Source: an uncultured Clostridia bacterium
GTDB taxonomy: Bacteria > Bacillota > Clostridia > Oscillospirales > Oscillospiraceae
Direction: 5' to 3'
DNA: 64,000 nucleotides
Assembly: GCA_947572235.1 (NCBI GenBank)
Contig: CANPBB010000001.1
Location: forward strand, 1,620-65,619
Part shown: positions 1,616 to 61,700 of the stretch, in pieces
Numbering within the stretch: the stretch's first letter is position 1
How the letters are laid out: each line of letters starts with the position of its first letter
Translations under genes and position numbers: made by a program
The notes under the pieces: generated by a model
Told to the model about the DNA's origin: nothing
The model's input: only the letters and a program-made list of their open reading frames with translations
Database searches by the model: none

Positions 1616-1654
1616 AGGATAGACCTCCCCCACACAGATAAAAGCCCTCGGCAG

Positions 1655-1806
1655 AGTTTCGCGTCCGCAGACGCGAAATAAATTAAAATCATTTTTTCCG
1701 GAAACCGCGTTTTCGGAAAAAATTCCTCTCGCGGAGCGGAGTGTGCGAGCGTAGCGAGTGCATGGAGCGCAGCGCAACCCCTTCGATTGAAAGCCCAGCG
1801 AAGCGG
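1655..1806 (+). repeat. Interspersed repeat family B (about 150 bp), copy 1
   Basis: Aligns by eye over its whole length (roughly four fifths of positions) to the reverse complement of 49639-49792. Starts with palindrome TTCGCGTCCGCAGACGCGAA. Confidence 0.8.
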
Positions 1807-35442: not shown

Positions 35443-35594
35443 AGGCAGCTGATGGTTCCCGCCTTCTAAGCGGCCTTTTGCTGGCTTTTGGGCTGCGCCA
35501 AAGGTCAGCCGTCCCCAAAAGCGATCCCCCGTTCCGCGCCGCCGCGGCGCAAAAAAGCACCGTGCCTCACCGGGGCACCACAAGGAGAACCACC

Positions 35595-46991: not shown

Positions 46992-47142
46992 AGAGGACTC
47001 CTTTTTGACCGTGCGCAAACCGCGCAGCGGGGTTGGGGACTACTATATCACAGATCATAAAAAAAGGCAAATCCTACCGCGGCGCCGGGGCATTTTCCGC
47101 GCCGGCGGCCCAACCGCTTTCTGTCGGGGGACGGTACCGCGC

Positions 47143-49605
47143 CTACCGCTTCAGCCCCAGCCTCTCCACGGCTTCCTCCCGCATCTTGTACTTCAAGATC
47201 TTCCCCGCCGCGTTCATGGGGAAGCTCTCCACAAACTCCACATAGCGGGGCACCTTGTGCTTGGCCATGTGGGAGAGGACAAACGCCTTCATCTCCTGCT
47301 CCGTCAGGGTCTCCCCCTCCTTCAAAATGACGCAGGCCATGATCTCCTCGCCGTACTGCTCATCGGGCACGCCGATGACCTGCACGTCCCGGACCTTGGG
47401 GTGGGTGTAGATGAACTCCTCGATCTCACGGGGGTAGATGTTCTCCCCCCCGCGGATGATCATGTCCTTCAGCCGTCCTGTGACCTTGAAATTCCCGTTC
47501 TCATCCTCGCAGCACAGGTCCCCGCTGTGGAGCCAGCCGTCGGCGTCGATGGTCTCGGCGGTGGCCTTGGGCATCTTGTAGTAGCCCTTCATGATGTTGT
47601 ACCCTCTGGCCACAAACTCACCGCTGACGCCCACGGGGCACTCCTCCCCGGTGTTGGGGTCGATGATCCTGCACTCCACATTGGCAAACCGGCTGCCCAC
47701 GGTCTCCGTGCGTACGTCCAATGGGTCGTCAAAGCTGCTCATGGTGCACCCCGGGCTGGCCTCGGTCTGCCCGAACACGCTGATGATCTGCTTCATATTC
47801 ATCACATCCGCCGCCTTGCGCATCAGCTCCGGAGGACAGTTGGCCCCGGCCATGATCCCGGTGCGGATATGGGAGAAGTCGGTGTTGGGGAAGTCGGGGT
47901 GGTTCATCATGGCGATAAACATGGTGGGCACGCCGTTAAACGTGGTGATCCGCTCCTGATGGATGCAGGCGAGGGCCGGCTTGGGGGAGAAGTAGGGCAG
48001 CGGGCACATGGTGGCGCCGTGGGTCATGGAGGCGGTCATGGACAGCACCATGCCGAAGCAGTGGAACATGGGCACCTGGATCATCATCCGGTCGGCGGTG
48101 GAGAGGTCCATGTGGTCGCCGATATATTTGCCGTTGTTGACCACGTTGTAGTGGGTGAGCATGACGCCCTTGGGGAAGCCGGTGGTGCCGGAGGTGTACT
48201 GCATATTGGCCACGTCGTGGACCCGCACCGCCGCGGCCCGGCGGCGGACCTCCTGGGGGGACACCCGCCCGGACAGGGCCACGGCCTCGTCCCAGGTCAG
48301 GCACCCCGCCTGCCGGTAGCCCACGGTGACCACGTTGCGCAGGAAGGGCAGGCGCTTGCAGTGCAGGGGCTTGCCGGGCTGGGCGGTGGAGAGCTCGGGG
48401 CACAGCTCGGCGATGATCTCCGCGTAGTGGCTGTCCCGGTAGCTCTCGATCATCACCAGGGTGTGGGTGTCGGACTGGCGCAGCAGGTACTCCGCCTCGT
48501 GGATCTTATAGGCGGTATTCACCGTCACCAGCACCGCGCCGATCTTGGTGGCGGCCCAGAAGGTGATGAACCAAGCGGGCACGTTGGTGGCCCAGATGGC
48601 CACCTTGTCCCCCGGCTTCACCCCCAAGGCGATAAGGCTCCGGGCAAACTGGTCCACGTCGTCCCTAAACTGGGCGTAGGTCCGGGTGTAGTCCAAGGTG
48701 GTGTACTTGAAGGCGTACTGGTCCGGGAACTCCTCCACCATCCGGTCCAGCACCTGCGGGAAGGTGTACTCAATCACCGTGTCCTTCTTCCACACATACT
48801 GCCCTTGGCCCCGTGTGTCATAGTAGAGGTGTTTCTTCCGCCGCTCCCGCTCGAAGCGGGACATGGTCACGGCAAAATGGGTGAGGATCATCTCCAAGTC
48901 CTCCAGCCCGGAAATCCAAGCCGGCTCCCAGAGGAGGGAGAGGTACCCGTCATAGTTGACGCTGCGCAGGGCGTCCATCAGCTCCCGCAGGGGCAGCGCC
49001 CCCTCGCTCAGGAGCTTGTGGTCCCCGCTGTTGTCGGCGTCGGTGAGGCGCACATGGCGGACATAGGCCCCCAAGTTGGTGATGGTCTCCTCCGCCGTCT
49101 CCTTCTGCAGGAGGCAGGTCTCCTGCATATCCCAGCAGGCGGCCAGCTCGTCGCTGGCGAAGTGGTTGAGCACATCCCGGAGCCGCCCGGTGTCCCGCAG
49201 CCCCCCGGCGGTGGAGAGCAGCAGGGTGACGCCGGTGCCCGCGGCCTGTGCCATGGCGCTCCCCACGCCGTCAATCACCTGCCGGATATCCTCGCAGGCG
49301 GTGGAGAGCACCACATAGGGCACCAGCAGGTCCCGCGCGGCCCGTATGGTCTCCGCCACGTCTCCGGCCCCGCCGTTGAGGAAGTCCCCGGCCACAGCGA
49401 TGCAGGGGATCTCCAACCCCTGCCGGCTGAGGCTCCGCCGGGCGGAGAGGGCCATCTCGGGGTTGATGGGGCTGGTCTTAGCCTGGAGCGCTGGGTTGTG
49501 GACAGAGTCGATCTCCACGCCTTGGACACGTGTCTCCGCCGCCGCGGCACAGAAGCCGGCCCAGTCCCCGCTGGACCAGCCGTGGATGGAATAGGAAAGT
49601 TTCAT
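47143..49605 (-). CDS. Fusion protein: xylose-isomerase-like TIM barrel (N-terminus, about 270 aa) plus acyl/aryl-CoA synthetase (AMP-forming) domain
   Basis: The N-terminal part ends in NYDGYLSLLWEP. The C-terminal part has YTSGTTGFPKGV, GWLHSGDL and GRLKDMIIRGGENIYP adenylation motifs. Start MKLSYS behind GGAGG. Confidence 0.88.
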   Translation of the reverse strand: MKLSYSIHGWSSGDWAGFCAAAAETRVQGVEIDSVHNPALQAKTSPINPEMALSARRSLSRQGLEIPCIAVAGDFLNGGAGDVAETIRAARDLLVPYVVLSTACEDIRQVIDGVGSAMAQAAGTGVTLLLSTAGGLRDTGRLRDVLNHFASDELAACWDMQETCLLQKETAEETITNLGAYVRHVRLTDADNSGDHKLLSEGALPLRELMDALRSVNYDGYLSLLWEPAWISGLEDLEMILTHFAVTMSRFERERRKKHLYYDTRGQGQYVWKKDTVIEYTFPQVLDRMVEEFPDQYAFKYTTLDYTRTYAQFRDDVDQFARSLIALGVKPGDKVAIWATNVPAWFITFWAATKIGAVLVTVNTAYKIHEAEYLLRQSDTHTLVMIESYRDSHYAEIIAELCPELSTAQPGKPLHCKRLPFLRNVVTVGYRQAGCLTWDEAVALSGRVSPQEVRRRAAAVRVHDVANMQYTSGTTGFPKGVMLTHYNVVNNGKYIGDHMDLSTADRMMIQVPMFHCFGMVLSMTASMTHGATMCPLPYFSPKPALACIHQERITTFNGVPTMFIAMMNHPDFPNTDFSHIRTGIMAGANCPPELMRKAADVMNMKQIISVFGQTEASPGCTMSSFDDPLDVRTETVGSRFANVECRIIDPNTGEECPVGVSGEFVARGYNIMKGYYKMPKATAETIDADGWLHSGDLCCEDENGNFKVTGRLKDMIIRGGENIYPREIEEFIYTHPKVRDVQVIGVPDEQYGEEIMACVILKEGETLTEQEMKAFVLSHMAKHKVPRYVEFVESFPMNAAGKILKYKMREEAVERLGLKR

Positions 49606-49638
49606 ATTGATAAACCTCCAAGGAGTTTCGCCTGAGGG

Positions 49639-49792
49639 CCGCTTCGCCGGGTCCTCAAGCGAGAAGGATTTGCGCCCTGCTCCGCGCACTCGCTTCGCTC
49701 GCACACTGCGCAGGGCGAGAGGATTTTTTGCCGAAAACGCGGTTTCCGGTAAAAATGATTTCCGTTTATTCCGCGTCCGCGGACGCGAACCC
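49639..49792 (-). repeat. Interspersed repeat family B, copy 2
   Basis: The reverse complement aligns to 1655-1806. Palindrome TTCGCGTCCGCGGACGCGGAA at the 49771-49792 end. Confidence 0.8.
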
Positions 49793-49827
49793 CTGCCGGG
49801 GCTTTTCTTTTTCCTCTGGAAAAAGTG

Positions 49828-51243
49828 TTAAAGGCTCTCATAGACAATTTTGTTCAGGGCGCTGATGTAGGCGCGGATGGAGGCGCCGATGATGTCGGTG
49901 GAGATGCCGTTGCCGGAGTAGAGCCGGCCGCCGGAGCGGAGCTTCACCAGCGCGGAGCCCATAGCCTCCCGGCCCTCGGTGACAGTCTGGATCTGGAAGT
50001 CATCCAGCTCGTAGTGGTGGCCGATGATCTGCTCGATGGCCAAAAACGCCGCGTCCACCGGGCCGTCCCCCATGCTGACGCCCTGGAGCTTCTTCCCGTC
50101 CCGCTCCAAGGTGATATTGGCCATGGCGGCCACCCGGTTGCCGTTAGTCACCACATACTGGTCGATCCGATAGGTGGACGGCACTTGGAAAGCGGAGGTG
50201 GCGACGATGGCCTCCAGCTCCTTCACCCCCACAAAGTGCTTCTTGTCGGCGATACGGCGGAAGGCCTCGTAGACCTTGGCGGTGTCCTCCTCACCGAGGT
50301 CATAGCCCATCTGCTTGACCACCTTGGCCACCTCGCCGATGTCGTCCCCGGCGCTGAGGCAGACCCCTGCCATCTCCTCCTGGACGCCGCTGTCGAAGGG
50401 GGAGGTGCTTGACCGCTCGTTCTGCATCCGCCACTGGAGCTGTTTGGCCACCCGCACCAGCTCCGTGGTGCGAAGGCGCGTCCGGATACCGCAGCTCTCC
50501 CCCCGCGCGGTGACGAAGGCGGCAAAGTCCTCCAGCAGCACCGTGTGCAGGGGACTGACGGTGGTCTTGACCACCTCGGCCCCGGCGGCCACCGCGGCGG
50601 CGGCGCAGGCCACGGACATCTTCAGCTCGTCGCTGAGCTCCACGCCGAGGCGCACCCGCTCCAGCGCCGGCGTGCTCTCCCGGAGGGTGCTGAGGAAGGC
50701 CTCCCACTCGAAGGGGGTCATCACCCCGGCGGTGTCACAGAGGGTGATCTCCTCGGCCCCGGCCTCCACCGCAGCGGTGAGGACCTCGCTGAGGAAGGCG
50801 CCCTCCGCCCGGGTGGCGTCCAAGGCGGAGAGGGCCACATGCTCGGTGTAGTACCGGGCCTTCCGCACCAGAGCGGCGGTGAGCTCCACAACGGCGGGCC
50901 CCTTCCTGTGGCAGAGGTACTCCATCTGGATGGCGGAGACGGGCATCAGCACCTGAAGGGCGGGGGACTTGGCGGCCTTCACGCTCTCCCAGGCCTCGGT
51001 GACGCTGTCCTCGCTCATCCCCACGCTGGCCATCACGGCGGCGGAGGCAACCACAGAGGCAATGGTCTTGTTGGTGAGCACATCGGCCTCCTGGCCGTCG
51101 GAGATGGGGGGCAGCTCGATCCGGTCCACGCGGAGCCGGTCCAAGGACCGGGCCAGCTCAATGCGCTCCTTAAAGCTCAGCGCCGCGGCGGACTGATTGG
51201 CCACCTCTCGGAGCGTGATGTCTGCAATTTGAATGGTTTTCAT
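49828..51243 (-). CDS. LeuA/CimA-family (HMGL-like TIM barrel plus LeuA allosteric domain) protein lacking canonical catalytic motifs
   Basis: Start MKTIQIADITLREV behind GAAGGAGA. DTAGVMTP. C-terminal LeuA-dimer-like GDGPVDAAF...GISTDIIGASIRAYISALNK. RDGEQ and HxHNDxG are not present. Confidence 0.85.
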   Translation of the reverse strand: MKTIQIADITLREVANQSAAALSFKERIELARSLDRLRVDRIELPPISDGQEADVLTNKTIASVVASAAVMASVGMSEDSVTEAWESVKAAKSPALQVLMPVSAIQMEYLCHRKGPAVVELTAALVRKARYYTEHVALSALDATRAEGAFLSEVLTAAVEAGAEEITLCDTAGVMTPFEWEAFLSTLRESTPALERVRLGVELSDELKMSVACAAAAVAAGAEVVKTTVSPLHTVLLEDFAAFVTARGESCGIRTRLRTTELVRVAKQLQWRMQNERSSTSPFDSGVQEEMAGVCLSAGDDIGEVAKVVKQMGYDLGEEDTAKVYEAFRRIADKKHFVGVKELEAIVATSAFQVPSTYRIDQYVVTNGNRVAAMANITLERDGKKLQGVSMGDGPVDAAFLAIEQIIGHHYELDDFQIQTVTEGREAMGSALVKLRSGGRLYSGNGISTDIIGASIRAYISALNKIVYESL

Positions 51244-51264
51244 AGGGTGTTCTCCTTCTCTGAT

Positions 51265-51581
51265 GAAAAATAAAAGCGTCCCAAAGACAGAACATACTGT
51301 CTCTGGGACGATAATGGACATTACCGCGGTACCACCCGGATTTGCGCCAAAGGGCGCACACTTATGGGACTCCAGCAAGTCCCTGCCTCTGATAACGGGG
51401 GCCTCCGTGGCCGCCTACTCGCTGGGCGCGCCGCGCCCGCTTTGGGGGACCCTGCTCCAGTGCCAGCCGCCAGACTGCCGCTCCCGGCTCGCACCACCCG
51501 CCGGTTCTCTGAAAGCTGACAAACGTCTGACATAACACCTTCTAAGCATGATATCTTTATTATTTCGGGTTTTGAGGGAAT
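51265..51581 (-). promoter_or_regulatory. T-box riboswitch leader
   Basis: Minus strand has AGAGA, GGGUGGUGCGAGCC, CCCGUUAUC (F-box-like), AAAUCCGGGUGGUACCGCGG (T-box core, 51343-51324), and terminator hairpin CGUCCCAGAGACAG...CUGUCUUUGGGACG plus a U-run. Confidence 0.8.
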
Positions 51582-51587
51582 GTAGGG

Positions 51588-51616
51588 ATTTTACCACACG
51601 GGGTGGAGGCTGTCAA
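51588..51616 (-). promoter_or_regulatory. Sigma-A-type promoter of the T-box leader
   Basis: Minus strand reads TTGACA, 17 nt, TAAAAT. Confidence 0.6.
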
Positions 51617-52345
51617 GAGGGTTTTTTGTGGGGGGGGAGGTGCCCGGCAGGGCACGGTGCTTTTTTCGCGCCGCCGCGGCGCGATTTGGGGACGGGGGTT
51701 TCGCCCCCCGGGGCGACCTGCTTTTCTCGCACGAGAAAAGTAGGCAAAAGCGCGCTTAGGTGTCCGCTCAGGCGGGCTTTAGCCCCCCGCAGGGGGGCAC
51801 AGCCCTGATTCGCGTCCCCCTAAGAACCCCAAGACGCGGCGCAGCTTCGGTAGACTGGTGCGTAGGTTTACTGCGAGCTTCGGACGCGGCGGCGGTAGCT
51901 CTCGCAAAGCAGATGGTACTGGCGAGCGTCCCCCCGTCTTTAGTCCTGCTATAAACCGCCGCTGCCGCTCTGCCTGCCTCGCTTCGACTTGCCTCCGAAA
52001 CTTGAAGGTGGTTTCGCTGTTCGTTGTGCGGCAAATGCCGCCGTACTTGCCGATAATTGTTGTTGTTACGCAAATCTCCGTAGGGCGCGGCAACCCGGCG
52101 CGCCGTTCTTCGTCCACCGGGATGCTCCAACAAACCACCCGTAGGGGCCGGTGTCCTCACCGGTTCACCCCCTAACACCCACCGCACCTCCAATACACCG
52201 TCCCCCGTTAATCGGAATGCTTCGGTAAAACGTGTGTAGGGGCGCACATTGTGCGCCCGCTCTATCGACGCCCGCCGCACTGGGAAGGACAGGCGCACTG
52301 TCCCCGCCGGCTGGGGTGCTCCGATAAGCCGTCCCATATGGCCGT
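51617..52345. repeat. Gene-free array of GC-rich hairpins / REP-like units, including a roughly 300-bp mosaic element
   Basis: CGTAGGGCGCGGCAACCCGGCGCGCC (52079-52104), CGTAGGGGCCGGTGTCCTCACCGG (52140-52163), TGTAGGGGCGCACATTGTGCGCCCGC (52235-52260). 51745-52050 matches 59591-59893 in inverse orientation. Confidence 0.75.
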
Positions 52346-52357
52346 CCCCCGTCCGCT

Positions 52358-54051: not shown

Positions 54052-54795
54052 TCAGTACAGTGACAAATCACACATCGCCTTCCAATAGCTTTTTCGCTTT
54101 TTAGCCGCCTCCGGGTCCAAGGCCTGGAGGGTGTCCCAGAAGGGGGCGTAGAGAGATTTTTCGTGCTTGAAGATGAAGTCCAGGTCGATCTTGCCCGGGT
54201 GCCGGGCACAGAAGTCCTGCACCTTCCGGGCGAAGCCGGGATAGAAGGCGCGCCAGCAGGCCATGCTGAGCAGGTACTGGGACAGACTGGTGTTTACATA
54301 GGTGAGAATATCCCCGAAGGAGTCATGGAGCCATTTCCACACCGCGCCGGTTTTCAGCTCCACGGCGATATAGGCCACATCCTCGCGTTTCAGCCACTCC
54401 CAGCGCTCATCGGGCGTGCCGGCGCCGCTGATCACGCAGCCGCGGTCCAAGCTCCGGCTCTCGCCGATCACAAGGAGCTTTTTCTTCTTGGCCTGCTCCA
54501 CCCTGAGACAGCTCAGCCAAAAGACCACGCCGGGATACAGGCCGCGCTCCCGCTCCTCATCCGGGCAGCGATAGTCCGCGAAGCAGTCCGGAAGCCCCAC
54601 CTGCGTCAAAAACGCGCAGACTCCCTCCGGCAGCTCCAGCTTCCTGAGCTGAAACCCGACATACCGCCCCAGCGCCGGGTCCGCGAGAAAGTCCGCATCG
54701 GGCTCCAGCCCCGTCCCCGCCGCCTGCGCTTGCTCATAAAACCGAAGCATCTCGGGAAAATCCATCCAATTAGCCCGCCCTGCCTGCTGCCCCAC
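54052..54795 (-). CDS. Hypothetical protein (247 aa), possibly SUKH/SMI1-type immunity-like
   Basis: GTG start behind AGAGGG. My impression of a SUKH-like pattern is weak and unverified. Confidence 0.65.
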   Translation of the reverse strand: MGQQAGRANWMDFPEMLRFYEQAQAAGTGLEPDADFLADPALGRYVGFQLRKLELPEGVCAFLTQVGLPDCFADYRCPDEERERGLYPGVVFWLSCLRVEQAKKKKLLVIGESRSLDRGCVISGAGTPDERWEWLKREDVAYIAVELKTGAVWKWLHDSFGDILTYVNTSLSQYLLSMACWRAFYPGFARKVQDFCARHPGKIDLDFIFKHEKSLYAPFWDTLQALDPEAAKKRKSYWKAMCDLSLY

Positions 54796-58870: not shown

Positions 58871-60190
58871 AAAAAAGAGCGTTGTTTTCGCGTGTTTTTT
58901 GATAAAAAACGGGGGAATTCCCCTGTTTTTGAGGAATATGTTTGCATCGAAACAGGCAACTTGTTGCACGCTCCCCCGCCGGAGAAGCGGGGGGAGGAGC
59001 GTGAGATCCGCCCCTACGATGGTTGATCGGGCCATCCCGGTGGACGGGGGACGGCGCGCCGGGGGATATGCCCTGCCGGTTGACGGGGAGCGGCACGCCG
59101 GGGGTGGGGAACGGGCCGGTGAGGATACCAGCCCCTGCGGGTGGGCTATCGGGAGTGCCTGCGAGGAATCCCGCCACCGCCGTTCGGCGGCCCCCTCATC
59201 TCGGCCTAAGAGCCTGTTTAAAATCTTCCTGCGCATGTCTTGGCGGCGTATTTTCCGCCCTGACTGCGTTAAAAATCCTTGCCATCCGTCAGGATGCCTG
59301 CGGATTTTTGCCTTGCAGGGCAAAAAATCCACTCGCCAATCCATACACGTCGAGATATTAAACAGGCTCTTAGAGCCGCCCTTTGGGGCGGTTGGCCTCG
59401 AAACGTGCCTGTGGGCGCCGCCTTCAGCAAGGGAGCCAGGGGGCGAAACGCCATAATCGCCCAGCCCCGGTGCGGTGGGTGTCCAGAGAGCGGACGCACA
59501 ATACCCGCAGGGATACGCCGCATCTGTAAGGGGCAGAGCCGCCAACGGCTGCGCTGTGTGCGCCCCTACAGACGGTATACTGACAGTACCGGAAGGCACG
59601 GCGGCATTTGCTGCACTGGGCCGGAGGTTTGACCTCTAAGTTTCTAAAACAAGTCGGGCAACGGAGGCAGAGCGGCAGCGGACGCCTACAGCATGGCCAT
59701 AGACGGAGGGACGCTCGCCAGTACCGTCCCGCTGAGCGGGAGCAACCGCCGCCGCGCGGGGTGCGCTGAGGTTGGATGAGCGCCGGGCTGTCGAGGGGGC
59801 TATGGTTCTTAGGGAGGGAGCGAATAAGGGCTGCGTCCCACCGCGGGTGGGGCTAAAGCCCGCCTGAGCGGACTCCCAAGCGCGCTTTTGCAGGCTTGGT
59901 CAGAGAGCCAAAAAGGAAAGGATGTGTGAAGGAAAACCATTCGGTTTTCCTTCATGTTCAATCAACCCGCCCCAGCGACAGATTTTGGCATCCCGCCAAA
60001 ATCTGTTGGGTCTGGGGGCCCTGTCCCCAGACCCAGTCGCTTGGGGCGAAACCTCCGTTCCCAAACCGCGCGGAAAAGTCTTGGTACTGCGCCGCAGTAC
60101 CCCCCGCCGCGGGACGCGACGGCAGAAGGGGGCCAGCCCCGCCCTGCCCCGGCCCCGCCCTACCCCAACCCAACTCTTCTGCCAAAAAGA
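58871..60190. repeat. 1.3-kb gene-free array of consecutive GC-rich hairpins / REP-like units plus a mosaic element
   Basis: Dozens of short palindromes, e.g. GAAGGAAAACCATTCGGTTTTCCTTC, CAGATTTTGGCATCCCGCCAAAATCTG, GGTACTGCGCCGCAGTACC. GTAG/GCAG-GGGC units near 59010, 59140 and 59565. Confidence 0.75.
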
Positions 60191-61489: not shown

Positions 61490-61700
61490 CGTCCCTTGGG
61501 GCGGGCGGACGGCCTGCCGGAGCGTTTTGTCCGGCGGGGACGGCGCGCCCTACGGGCGGGCTATCGGGAGTGCGGTGGATATCGGGGAACAGGCCGGTGA
61601 GGACACCGGCCCCTACGGGTGGGTTTGACGGACCATCCCGGCGCCGGGAGAACGGTGCCCTGCCGGGCGCTTTTCGCGCTGCCCCAGCGGCGGAATCCCC
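61490..61700. repeat. REP-like hairpin cluster upstream of the mfd promoter
   Basis: GGACGGCGCGCCCTACGGGCGGGCTATCGGGAGTGC and GGCCGGTGAGGACACCGGCCCCTACGGGTGGG match modules at 59050-59170 and 52080-52165. Confidence 0.7.

Follow-up and report, generated by a model that had tools for sequence, protein, structure and literature searches.

The locus analysed here lies on a 64,000-nt stretch of contig CANPBB010000001.1 (forward strand, positions 1,620 to 65,619; assembly GCA_947572235.1) from an uncultured bacterium of the Oscillospiraceae (Clostridia), and this whole stretch is called the window in the following. The minus strand of the window carries a promoter, a T-box leader, gene 1, an intergenic spacer and gene 2, in that order (Table 1). 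Gene 1 encodes a relative of the 2-isopropylmalate synthase (IPMS) LeuA, with an HMGL-like and a LeuA_dimer domain, and the product of gene 2 (820 aa) joins an AP_endonuc_2 TIM barrel to an AMP-binding and an AMP-binding_C domain. A preliminary description of the sequence had named these same parts, and both its consensus promoter (51616-51588) and its fusion of a TIM barrel with an AMP-ligase were borne out. The true start of gene 1 is the ATG at 51243, which is preceded by GGAGAA, a ribosome-binding site of the GGAG type, and the gene runs to 49828; gene 2 has its ATG start codon at 49605, with a GGAGG ribosome-binding site 8 nt before it, and extends to 47143. The longer open reading frames (ORFs) listed for this region (516 aa from TTG and 853 aa from GTG) extend into the leader and the spacer and were rejected as genes.

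Table 1. Positions in the window of the features of the operon
Feature	Position	Strand	Remarks
Sigma-70-type promoter, TTGACA-17 nt-TAAAAT with extended -10 TG	51588..51616	-	11/12 consensus matches
T-box leader: Stem I, Stem II/IIA-B region, Stem III, antiterminator	51301..51553	-	Rfam RF00230
Leu specifier codon CUG within the specifier loop of Stem I; G51463 and the helix CACU come next	51464..51466	-	Rfam alignment register
Conserved T-box sequence GGGUGGUACCGCG; UGGU bulge pairs with the tRNA 3' NCCA end	51325..51337	-	
Leader terminator, 14-bp hairpin (51310-51277) and U-run	51267..51310	-	
Gene 1, LeuA-derived putative pseudoenzyme, 471 aa: degenerate DRE-TIM barrel, accessory region, LeuA_dimer regulatory domain	49828..51243	-	
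Intergenic spacer, 222 nt, strongly structured, without U-tract terminator	49606..49827	-	
Copy of small repeat element, ~120 nt	49686..49806		Second copy inverted at window 1640-1761, 87% identical
Gene 2, N-terminal xylose-isomerase-like TIM barrel, aa 1-262	48820..49605	-	Metal-ligand positions S-D-R-L
Gene 2, AMP-forming acyl-CoA ligase domain, aa ~275-820, adenylation motifs intact, stop codon included	47143..48783	-	
Candidate 3' terminator: branched GC-rich hairpin closed by AGGC/GCCU, then U7 (47065-47059)	47059..47144	-	

The leader was matched by the T-box model RF00230 over its full length (positions 1-219) with 84.7 bits and E = 5.8e-18, and by an nhmmer family profile with 171 bits, which confirms the T-box of the preliminary description and allowed its specificity to be read as leucine. 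It contains a K-turn, an AGAGA bulge, a distal GGUGGUG loop and the T-box sequence GGGUGGUACCGCG, and the segment CGUCCC forms both the 5' arm of the leader terminator and the 3' arm of the antiterminator. Since the score of the window leader falls short of the RF00230 gathering score of 93 bits, an Rfam scan of the 64-kb window at gathering thresholds returned nothing, and the T-box became visible only when E-value thresholds were used. Orthologous leaders scored 86-119 bits against the same model, and those of loci L001 (103), L033 (119) and L025 (97.5) exceed the gathering score. No second T-box and no tRNA genes were found in the window.

With regard to the specifier, the 3' side of the loop reads GCGGCUGG and is followed by the helix CACU, which places CUG at the codon position in the Rfam alignment. 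A parser anchored on the AG bulge and cross-checked against Rfam alignments gave a leucine codon in 40 of the 43 orthologous leaders that it parsed (CUC in 27, CUG in 13); the three non-leucine triplets were regarded as misparses, and a further 19 leaders ahead of the LeuA-like gene were not parsed. In the Rfam alignments the same register holds CUG in L004, L025 and L033, and CUC in L001 and L052, and a trpB leader, taken as a positive control, reads UGG there. The -1 and +1 frames gave mixed amino acids across the orthologues, so that only the leucine frame is coherent. A reading of the window specifier as alanine (GCU) was tried and rejected, as the -1 frame gives Ser, Pro or Ala depending on the orthologue. 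Because the window leader has CUG and nearly all parsed leaders have CUC or CUG, the T-box is, on these sequence grounds, one that monitors tRNA-Leu.

In one collection about 62 of 85 loci have a T-box directly ahead of the gene pair; in the other the figure is 46 of 57. The loci that lack it gave no Rfam match. At about 330 nt before the LeuA-like gene, four of them (L015, L017, L019 and L020) have in common a promoter and, behind it, a conserved leader that holds two TTTCCGGAAA palindromes and a AAGCAAAAGAATATTTTGCACAATTTAATTTCC stretch; in this subclade control looks like that of a protein bound to an operator in place of a riboswitch.

The gene 1 product is named 'hypothetical protein [Oscillospiraceae bacterium]' by NCBI and '2-isopropylmalate synthase' in IMG. 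Its best NCBIfam LeuA match reached 279.8 bits and missed the equivalog cut-off of 532. Comparison with the IPMS structure 3rmj shows that RDGEQ has become REVAN, that HCHND has become ELSDE and that the GERAGN loop is deleted, so that the metal-ligand Asp of RDGEQ, the His-x-His and the Asn of GERAGN are missing, as is the catalytic Glu. The replacement of catalytic motifs that the preliminary description had pointed out is thus real, and the loss is family-wide: among 83 members, with identities down to 46%, the commonest residues at the position of the Asp ligand are E, Q, L, R, K and V, and those at the two His positions are E, Q, S, G, A and D, and S, A, I, N, E and V, respectively, with no Asp tabulated at the former position and no His at the latter two. 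This variety of replacement residues indicates relaxed constraint rather than a new active site. The former catalytic loop varies across the family, whereas the LeuA_dimer domain is nearly invariant and the most conserved part of the protein. Having lost its metal-binding and catalytic residues throughout the family, the LeuA-like protein would not be an enzyme.

The LeuA-like protein is to all appearances a maintained family and not a decaying gene. An exhaustive profile search recovered about 110-120 full-length clusters at 50% identity, all of 455-497 aa and with intact ORFs, and proteins of LeuA length started only at about 305 bits in this search. Approximately 30% of the alignment columns are invariant in the LeuA-like family, and the barrel residues kept invariant include D8, DATR 142-145 and D170. 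The barrel was also confidently modelled, and it superimposed on that of IPMS 3rmj with a TM-score of 0.83 and a root-mean-square deviation of 1.8 Å. A phmmer search of the PDB with the regulatory domain alone gave nothing useful for mapping leucine contacts.

The ligase domain of the fusion scored 314 bits for AMP-binding and 70 bits for AMP-binding_C in Pfam, and its adenylation motifs YTSGTTGxPKG and GRxKD, as well as the C-terminal catalytic Lys, are invariant in the family. The ligase domain is exceptionally well conserved: identities across the family are 70-77% for this domain and extend down to 46% for the LeuA-like protein and to about 30% for the TIM domain. The best curated ligase family was PRK12583 ('fatty acid CoA ligase family'), with 685 bits against a cut-off of 832, and the fusion passed no equivalog cut-off of a curated ligase subfamily with known substrate. 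The TIM domain matched PF01261 with 45 bits (gathering score 31.1). Its model was of good quality, with a predicted local distance difference test (pLDDT) of 80-93 and TM-scores of 0.71-0.76 to 3tva, 3wqo and 3cqi; in an AlphaFold model of the full fusion only this domain was well modelled, the ligase part staying below a pLDDT of 50. The domain resembles ketose-3-epimerase-like barrels with 12-16% identity, its best sequence-profile match was Art22 (52 bits), and profile and fold searches returned only generic epimerase/isomerase-like barrels. The Glu-Asp-His-Glu metal tetrad is not kept in the window, where it reads S131-D159-R186-L225. In 22 relatives the first metal-ligand Glu (window residue 131) is replaced by Lys and residue 227 is Lys as well (pattern KTDHHHHDEK), and the pairing of the two changes hints at an active site that is arranged differently and possibly works without metal.

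At least 588 matches to the LeuA-like protein were found in species-representative genomes, almost all of them metagenome-assembled genomes of gut or rumen Clostridia, and the three-part arrangement of leader and two genes is present in hundreds of genomes. In loci seeded with the LeuA-like protein, the fusion lay directly downstream in all 85 that had enough contig. The reciprocal search started from the TIM domain and drew on an independent metagenome collection; it found the LeuA-like gene immediately upstream in 62 of 65 loci and in one more as a frameshifted copy, and the ligase was fused to the TIM domain in 68 of 68. The two remaining loci, L114 and L120, have TIM matches that are truncated at the N-terminus (starting from residue 57 or 40) and may be rearranged or chimeric contigs. 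The neighbourhoods around the pair are otherwise unrelated among the loci. The concern that the two genes might not be syntenic elsewhere can thus be laid aside, the pair evidently being obligate in both directions.

Moreover, the junction between the two genes is usually very tight: the median gap is 3 nt, the genes overlap in 27 of 80 junctions, and the gap is 30 nt or less in 70 of the 80. The two genes are thus normally translationally coupled, which implies co-transcription by default. Measured against this median, the 222-nt spacer of the window is an outlier. It folds strongly (z = -3.8), and a terminator scan called no terminator in it. The preliminary description had the spacer filled by a family of repeats and lacking a terminator; the latter part stands, as does a repeat core at 49686-49806, although only two copies of the element were found in the window, and it is absent from all related loci. 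By all indications the spacer arose by the lineage-specific insertion of a small repeat at a junction where the genes are normally translationally coupled.

A clue to function comes from relatives in which the pair has further partners. In locus L052, a leucine (CUC) T-box is followed by genes for a P-loop NTPase, the alpha, beta and gamma subunits of a VorB-type 2-oxoacid:ferredoxin oxidoreductase (VOR), the aminotransferase IlvE, the LeuA-like protein, the fusion and an Amidohydro_2 protein; the VorB-type alpha subunit scored 541 bits against a cut-off of 399, and IlvE 484 against 307. Similar contiguous arrangements were seen in L064, L072, L074, L077 and L081. Within 8 kb on either side of the pair in 82 non-redundant loci, we counted the VOR alpha gene 30 times, the P-loop gene 31 times, IlvE 16 times, Amidohydro_2 23 times and a ligase with helix-turn-helix (HTH) and cupin domains 28 times. 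These HTH-cupin-ligases have MbcS as their best curated family and carry T-boxes of their own, with the specifier AUC (Ile, about 18 cases) or GUA/GUC (Val, about 5 cases), and the window ligase is only about 26% identical to them.

Purified MbcS activates 2-methylbutyrate and isobutyrate, isovalerate being a poor substrate (PMC10026030), and the carboxylation of isovalerate to leucine is documented physiology of rumen bacteria (Allison 1962 and 1966, as cited in PMC7356843). When the three branched-chain acids are set against the three T-box specificities and the two ligase types, isovalerate is left for the leucine-controlled ligase that is not of the MbcS type. Induction by a T-box on uncharged tRNA together with AMP-forming chemistry points to the anabolic direction, and because a VorB-type oxidoreductase and IlvE occur in the same leucine T-box operon, with MbcS-like ligases adjoining, the pair can be placed in the classical isovalerate-carboxylation route. 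The view in the preliminary description of a tRNA-sensing operon with uncharacterised proteins therefore still describes its anatomy, whereas its statement that no pathway could be named gives way to an isovalerate route suggested by the VOR, IlvE and MbcS-like context of the relatives.

Several observations were made on these neighbouring genes. The HTH-cupin-ligases are about 760-800 aa long and consist of an XRE-type HTH, a cupin and an MbcS-like AMP-ligase (e.g. L024:12011-14597, L033:2369-7562 on the minus strand and L025:12058-17369); their genes often precede the P-loop gene and VOR, and a DNA-binding domain fused to an acyl-CoA ligase is unusual. The P-loop NTPase, a CbiA/ParA-like protein of the NUBPL type of about 220 aa, precedes the VOR genes in 31 of the 82 loci (e.g. 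L052:3624-4289 and L024:14797-15453) and could be a maturation or assembly factor for the Fe-S clusters of the oxidoreductase. Amidohydro_2 (PF04909, 263-271 aa) is a frequent third gene after the fusion (L052:11927-12730 and 22 other loci); the protein matched no NCBIfam model, and the gene is absent from the window. In L004 the Amidohydro_2 gene lies 2.6 kb off, beside a DcuC-type carrier, and a toxin-antitoxin-like gene pair of the DarT/NADAR (DarT1) type lies near the operon (L004:19792-21120). The whole Leu/Ile cluster also occurs on contigs binned outside the Clostridia, namely L024 and L028 (Eggerthellaceae/Coriobacteriaceae labels) and L035 (Synergistaceae label), which reflects either horizontal transfer or mis-binning.

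Comparison with known systems shows both what is shared and what is new. The leader has the same Stem I with K-turn, specifier loop, AG bulge and distal loop, the same T-box sequence, the same mutually exclusive antiterminator and terminator and a leucine specifier codon as the leucine T-box leaders of Firmicutes (RF00230; ilv-leu operon, leuS), but it governs what appears to be a dead LeuA paralogue and a TIM::acyl-CoA ligase instead of a synthetase, a canonical biosynthetic enzyme or a transporter. Gene 1 shares domain order and fold with LeuA (PDB 3rmj, 1sr9 and 3fig), from which its family differs in lacking the metal-binding Asp, the His-x-His and the GERAGN loop and in always adjoining the ligase fusion. 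A precedent for such a protein is found in the HisZ-HisG(S) ATP-phosphoribosyltransferase, where a dead paralogue of histidyl-tRNA synthetase acts as the histidine-sensing regulatory subunit. In both cases an enzyme paralogue from the same pathway has lost catalysis and kept its ligand-binding module, and its gene lies immediately beside that of the catalytic partner; complex formation and allostery are demonstrated for HisZ-HisG, whereas here they are predicted, and the partner is an acyl-CoA ligase and not a former pathway neighbour of the paralogue.

The fusion, for its part, would resemble MbcS of S. aureus, an AMP-forming ligase that scavenges external branched short-chain acids (PMC10026030). 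It differs from MbcS in being of the PRK12583 type, in bearing an N-terminal TIM barrel, in that its proposed substrate isovalerate is a poor one for MbcS, and in that the proposed end use is amino-acid synthesis and not lipid synthesis. The predicted chemistry and the rumen or gut habitat are shared with the isovalerate carboxylation of rumen bacteria described by Allison (1962, 1966), which, as cited in PMC7356843, is tracer physiology without genes, while the present loci offer a gene set, T-box control and a putative pseudoenzyme. Neither the cluster nor a LeuA pseudoenzyme nor a bacterial isovalerate-CoA ligase turned up in the full-text literature searched, most subscription journals being outside the coverage, so that an earlier description is possible; the same literature assigned no genes to the isovalerate-to-leucine route, which has been known since the 1960s, and dealt neither with genes for the activation step nor with how they are regulated. 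The locus would thus be a T-box-controlled amino-acid supply operon of unprecedented gene content, with candidate genes for the old isovalerate-carboxylation pathway.

Taken together, we consider it reasonably probable that this is an operon induced by leucine starvation and that it forms the leucine arm of a salvage of branched-chain fatty acids into amino acids, leading from isovalerate through isovaleryl-CoA and 2-oxoisocaproate to leucine. As judged from the behaviour of the T-box family, uncharged tRNA-Leu would bind the CUG specifier and the T-box bulge and stabilise the antiterminator, whereupon transcription would enter both genes. The ligase domain of the fusion would then, as its context suggests, turn isovalerate (3-methylbutyrate) into isovaleryl-CoA, a VorB-type oxidoreductase would reductively carboxylate this to 2-oxoisocaproate, and IlvE would transaminate the latter to leucine. 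The LeuA-like protein probably acts as a leucine-sensing partner, by analogy with HisZ: since its regulatory domain is far more conserved than the barrel loops and its gene is translationally coupled to that of the fusion, we infer that it is a leucine-binding regulatory or scaffolding subunit of the ligase, which may dock on the N-terminal TIM domain of the fusion. Such a sensor would provide rapid feedback by the end product on top of the slower control by the T-box, much as HisZ regulates HisG.

A more far-reaching version, which we offer only tentatively, is that a LeuA paralogue has turned into a dedicated leucine sensor that docks on a degenerate TIM barrel and allosterically gates an isovalerate-CoA ligase, and that this pair, together with the Ile and Val ligases and VOR-IlvE, is the long-missing set of genes by which Clostridia of the gut and rumen make branched-chain amino acids from branched-chain fatty acids.

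It should be underlined that a number of observations weigh against the proposed leucine salvage and its sensor. Isovalerate is assigned by elimination and context, and not from a binding pocket. The VOR, IlvE and MbcS-like genes are all absent from the 64-kb window, and of the related loci only about half have such partner genes at a distance of up to 8 kb, while the T-box is missing from about a quarter of the loci and the Amidohydro_2 protein of 23 loci has no role in the model. With regard to the sensor, a domain of the LeuA_dimer type binds isoleucine in citramalate synthase, and the exhaustive profile search revealed no fusion of the LeuA-like protein to any other domain. Finally, the TIM tetrad is EDHE in 22, KDHE in 22 and ENHE in 9 of 77 relatives, the rest being degenerate; the domain is thus eroded in the clade of the window but may be catalytic in many other lineages, and the simple model needs no catalysis.

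The last of these points bears directly on an alternative in which the operon is still leucine-related and the ligase acts on another acid with the leucine skeleton that is available in the gut (such as 2-hydroxyisocaproate, isocaproate or a dicarboxylic precursor), with the TIM domain and Amidohydro_2 performing extra steps. We regard this as unlikely. It would account for metal ligands that are canonical or near-canonical in most distant relatives of an epimerase/isomerase-like barrel, for the presence of Amidohydro_2, whose family has decarboxylases and hydrolases among its members, directly after the fusion in 23 loci, and for a ligase that scores under the cut-off of every curated ligase family. 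However, with VOR and IlvE in the same leucine T-box operon only isovaleryl-CoA gives leucine directly, and the sibling Ile and Val ligases map to simple branched-chain acids. The ligase is, moreover, equally conserved in the window's clade, where the TIM ligands are eroded to S-D-R-L, and Amidohydro_2 is missing from the window and from most loci. A different use of the same product, namely as isovaleryl-CoA primers for iso-branched membrane fatty acids when leucine, from which such primers normally derive, is scarce, with leucine synthesis secondary or absent, would suit the window itself, where the pair stands alone with neither VOR nor IlvE nearby, and would follow the example of the MbcS-type enzymes that feed lipid synthesis in S. 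aureus (PMC10026030). Such a role appears improbable to us, since a T-box senses tRNA charging and hence the demand of protein synthesis, since IlvE and VOR are co-operonic under a leucine T-box in several genomes, where catabolic induction during starvation would waste leucine, and since leucine, isoleucine and valine specifiers matched to three ligases fit amino-acid supply.

The remaining alternatives concern the LeuA-like protein. That it is a real enzyme with a re-invented active site, working alone or with the TIM domain of the fusion in a new reaction on an acyl-CoA or a 2-oxoacid, would agree with its invariant barrel residues (D8, DATR 142-145 and D170), with the confidently folded barrel, and with the tight translational coupling, which also suits a two-subunit enzyme. 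Yet all three metal ligands and the catalytic loop are gone, their replacements vary (E/Q/L/R/K; E/Q/S/G/A; S/A/I/N/E) in a way that speaks for relaxed constraint, and the strongest conservation lies in the regulatory domain and not in the barrel; we therefore give this reading a low likelihood. It would be hardly credible that the association is incidental, a decaying leuA remnant beside an unrelated fatty-acid ligase, with the T-box as a relic of a former leu operon. The missing catalytic motifs and the 222-nt repeat-bearing spacer that parts the genes in the window could give that impression, but the ORFs are intact in 83 of 83 sampled loci and in the 110-120 or so clusters at 50% identity, some 30% of the columns in the LeuA-like family are invariant, synteny is obligate both ways across many neighbourhoods, and overlaps of stop and start codons are common, so that the conservation data effectively refute it.

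The genes that flank the operon in the window are unrelated housekeeping genes, coding for a ComM-like ATPase, LspA, RluD and a ParB-like protein. Downstream of the ligase gene, the hairpin and T-tract of the preliminary description are present as a hairpin followed by U7 (47065-47059), but the consensus terminator scan made no call there and shuffled sequence is at least as stable (z = +0.56). This U-run overlaps a promoter-like site (TTGCCT-17-TATAGT with TG; window 47042-47070, minus strand) from which lspA, further downstream, would be transcribed. A 740-nt gap (window 51617-52357) with no convincing gene inside separates the ComM-like gene from the operon promoter. It holds short segments that are repeated at window 59849-59891, 61594-61622, 35535-35566, 59701-59725 and 59033-59063, and, on the plus strand, a pair of hairpins that resemble terminators (51640-51655 and 51701-51716). 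Upstream of the ComM-like gene there is a gene of the SUKH-4 immunity-protein family (PF14435, 48 bits; window 54052-54795, minus strand).

It has been known for sixty years that Clostridia of the rumen and gut need or use branched-chain volatile fatty acids for valine, leucine and isoleucine, and the locus and its relatives point to a concrete gene set for this, made up of three T-box-controlled ligases, a VorB-type oxidoreductase and IlvE. If the LeuA-like protein were counted as LeuA, leucine prototrophy would be wrongly predicted in at least 588 species-level genomes. Should the tentative sensor model be true, leucine salvage in these bacteria would be under double control, with the T-box responding to the charging of tRNA-Leu and the pseudoenzyme to free leucine. 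The LeuA-like family may also add a new instance of a biosynthetic enzyme that has been reused as a regulatory pseudoenzyme.

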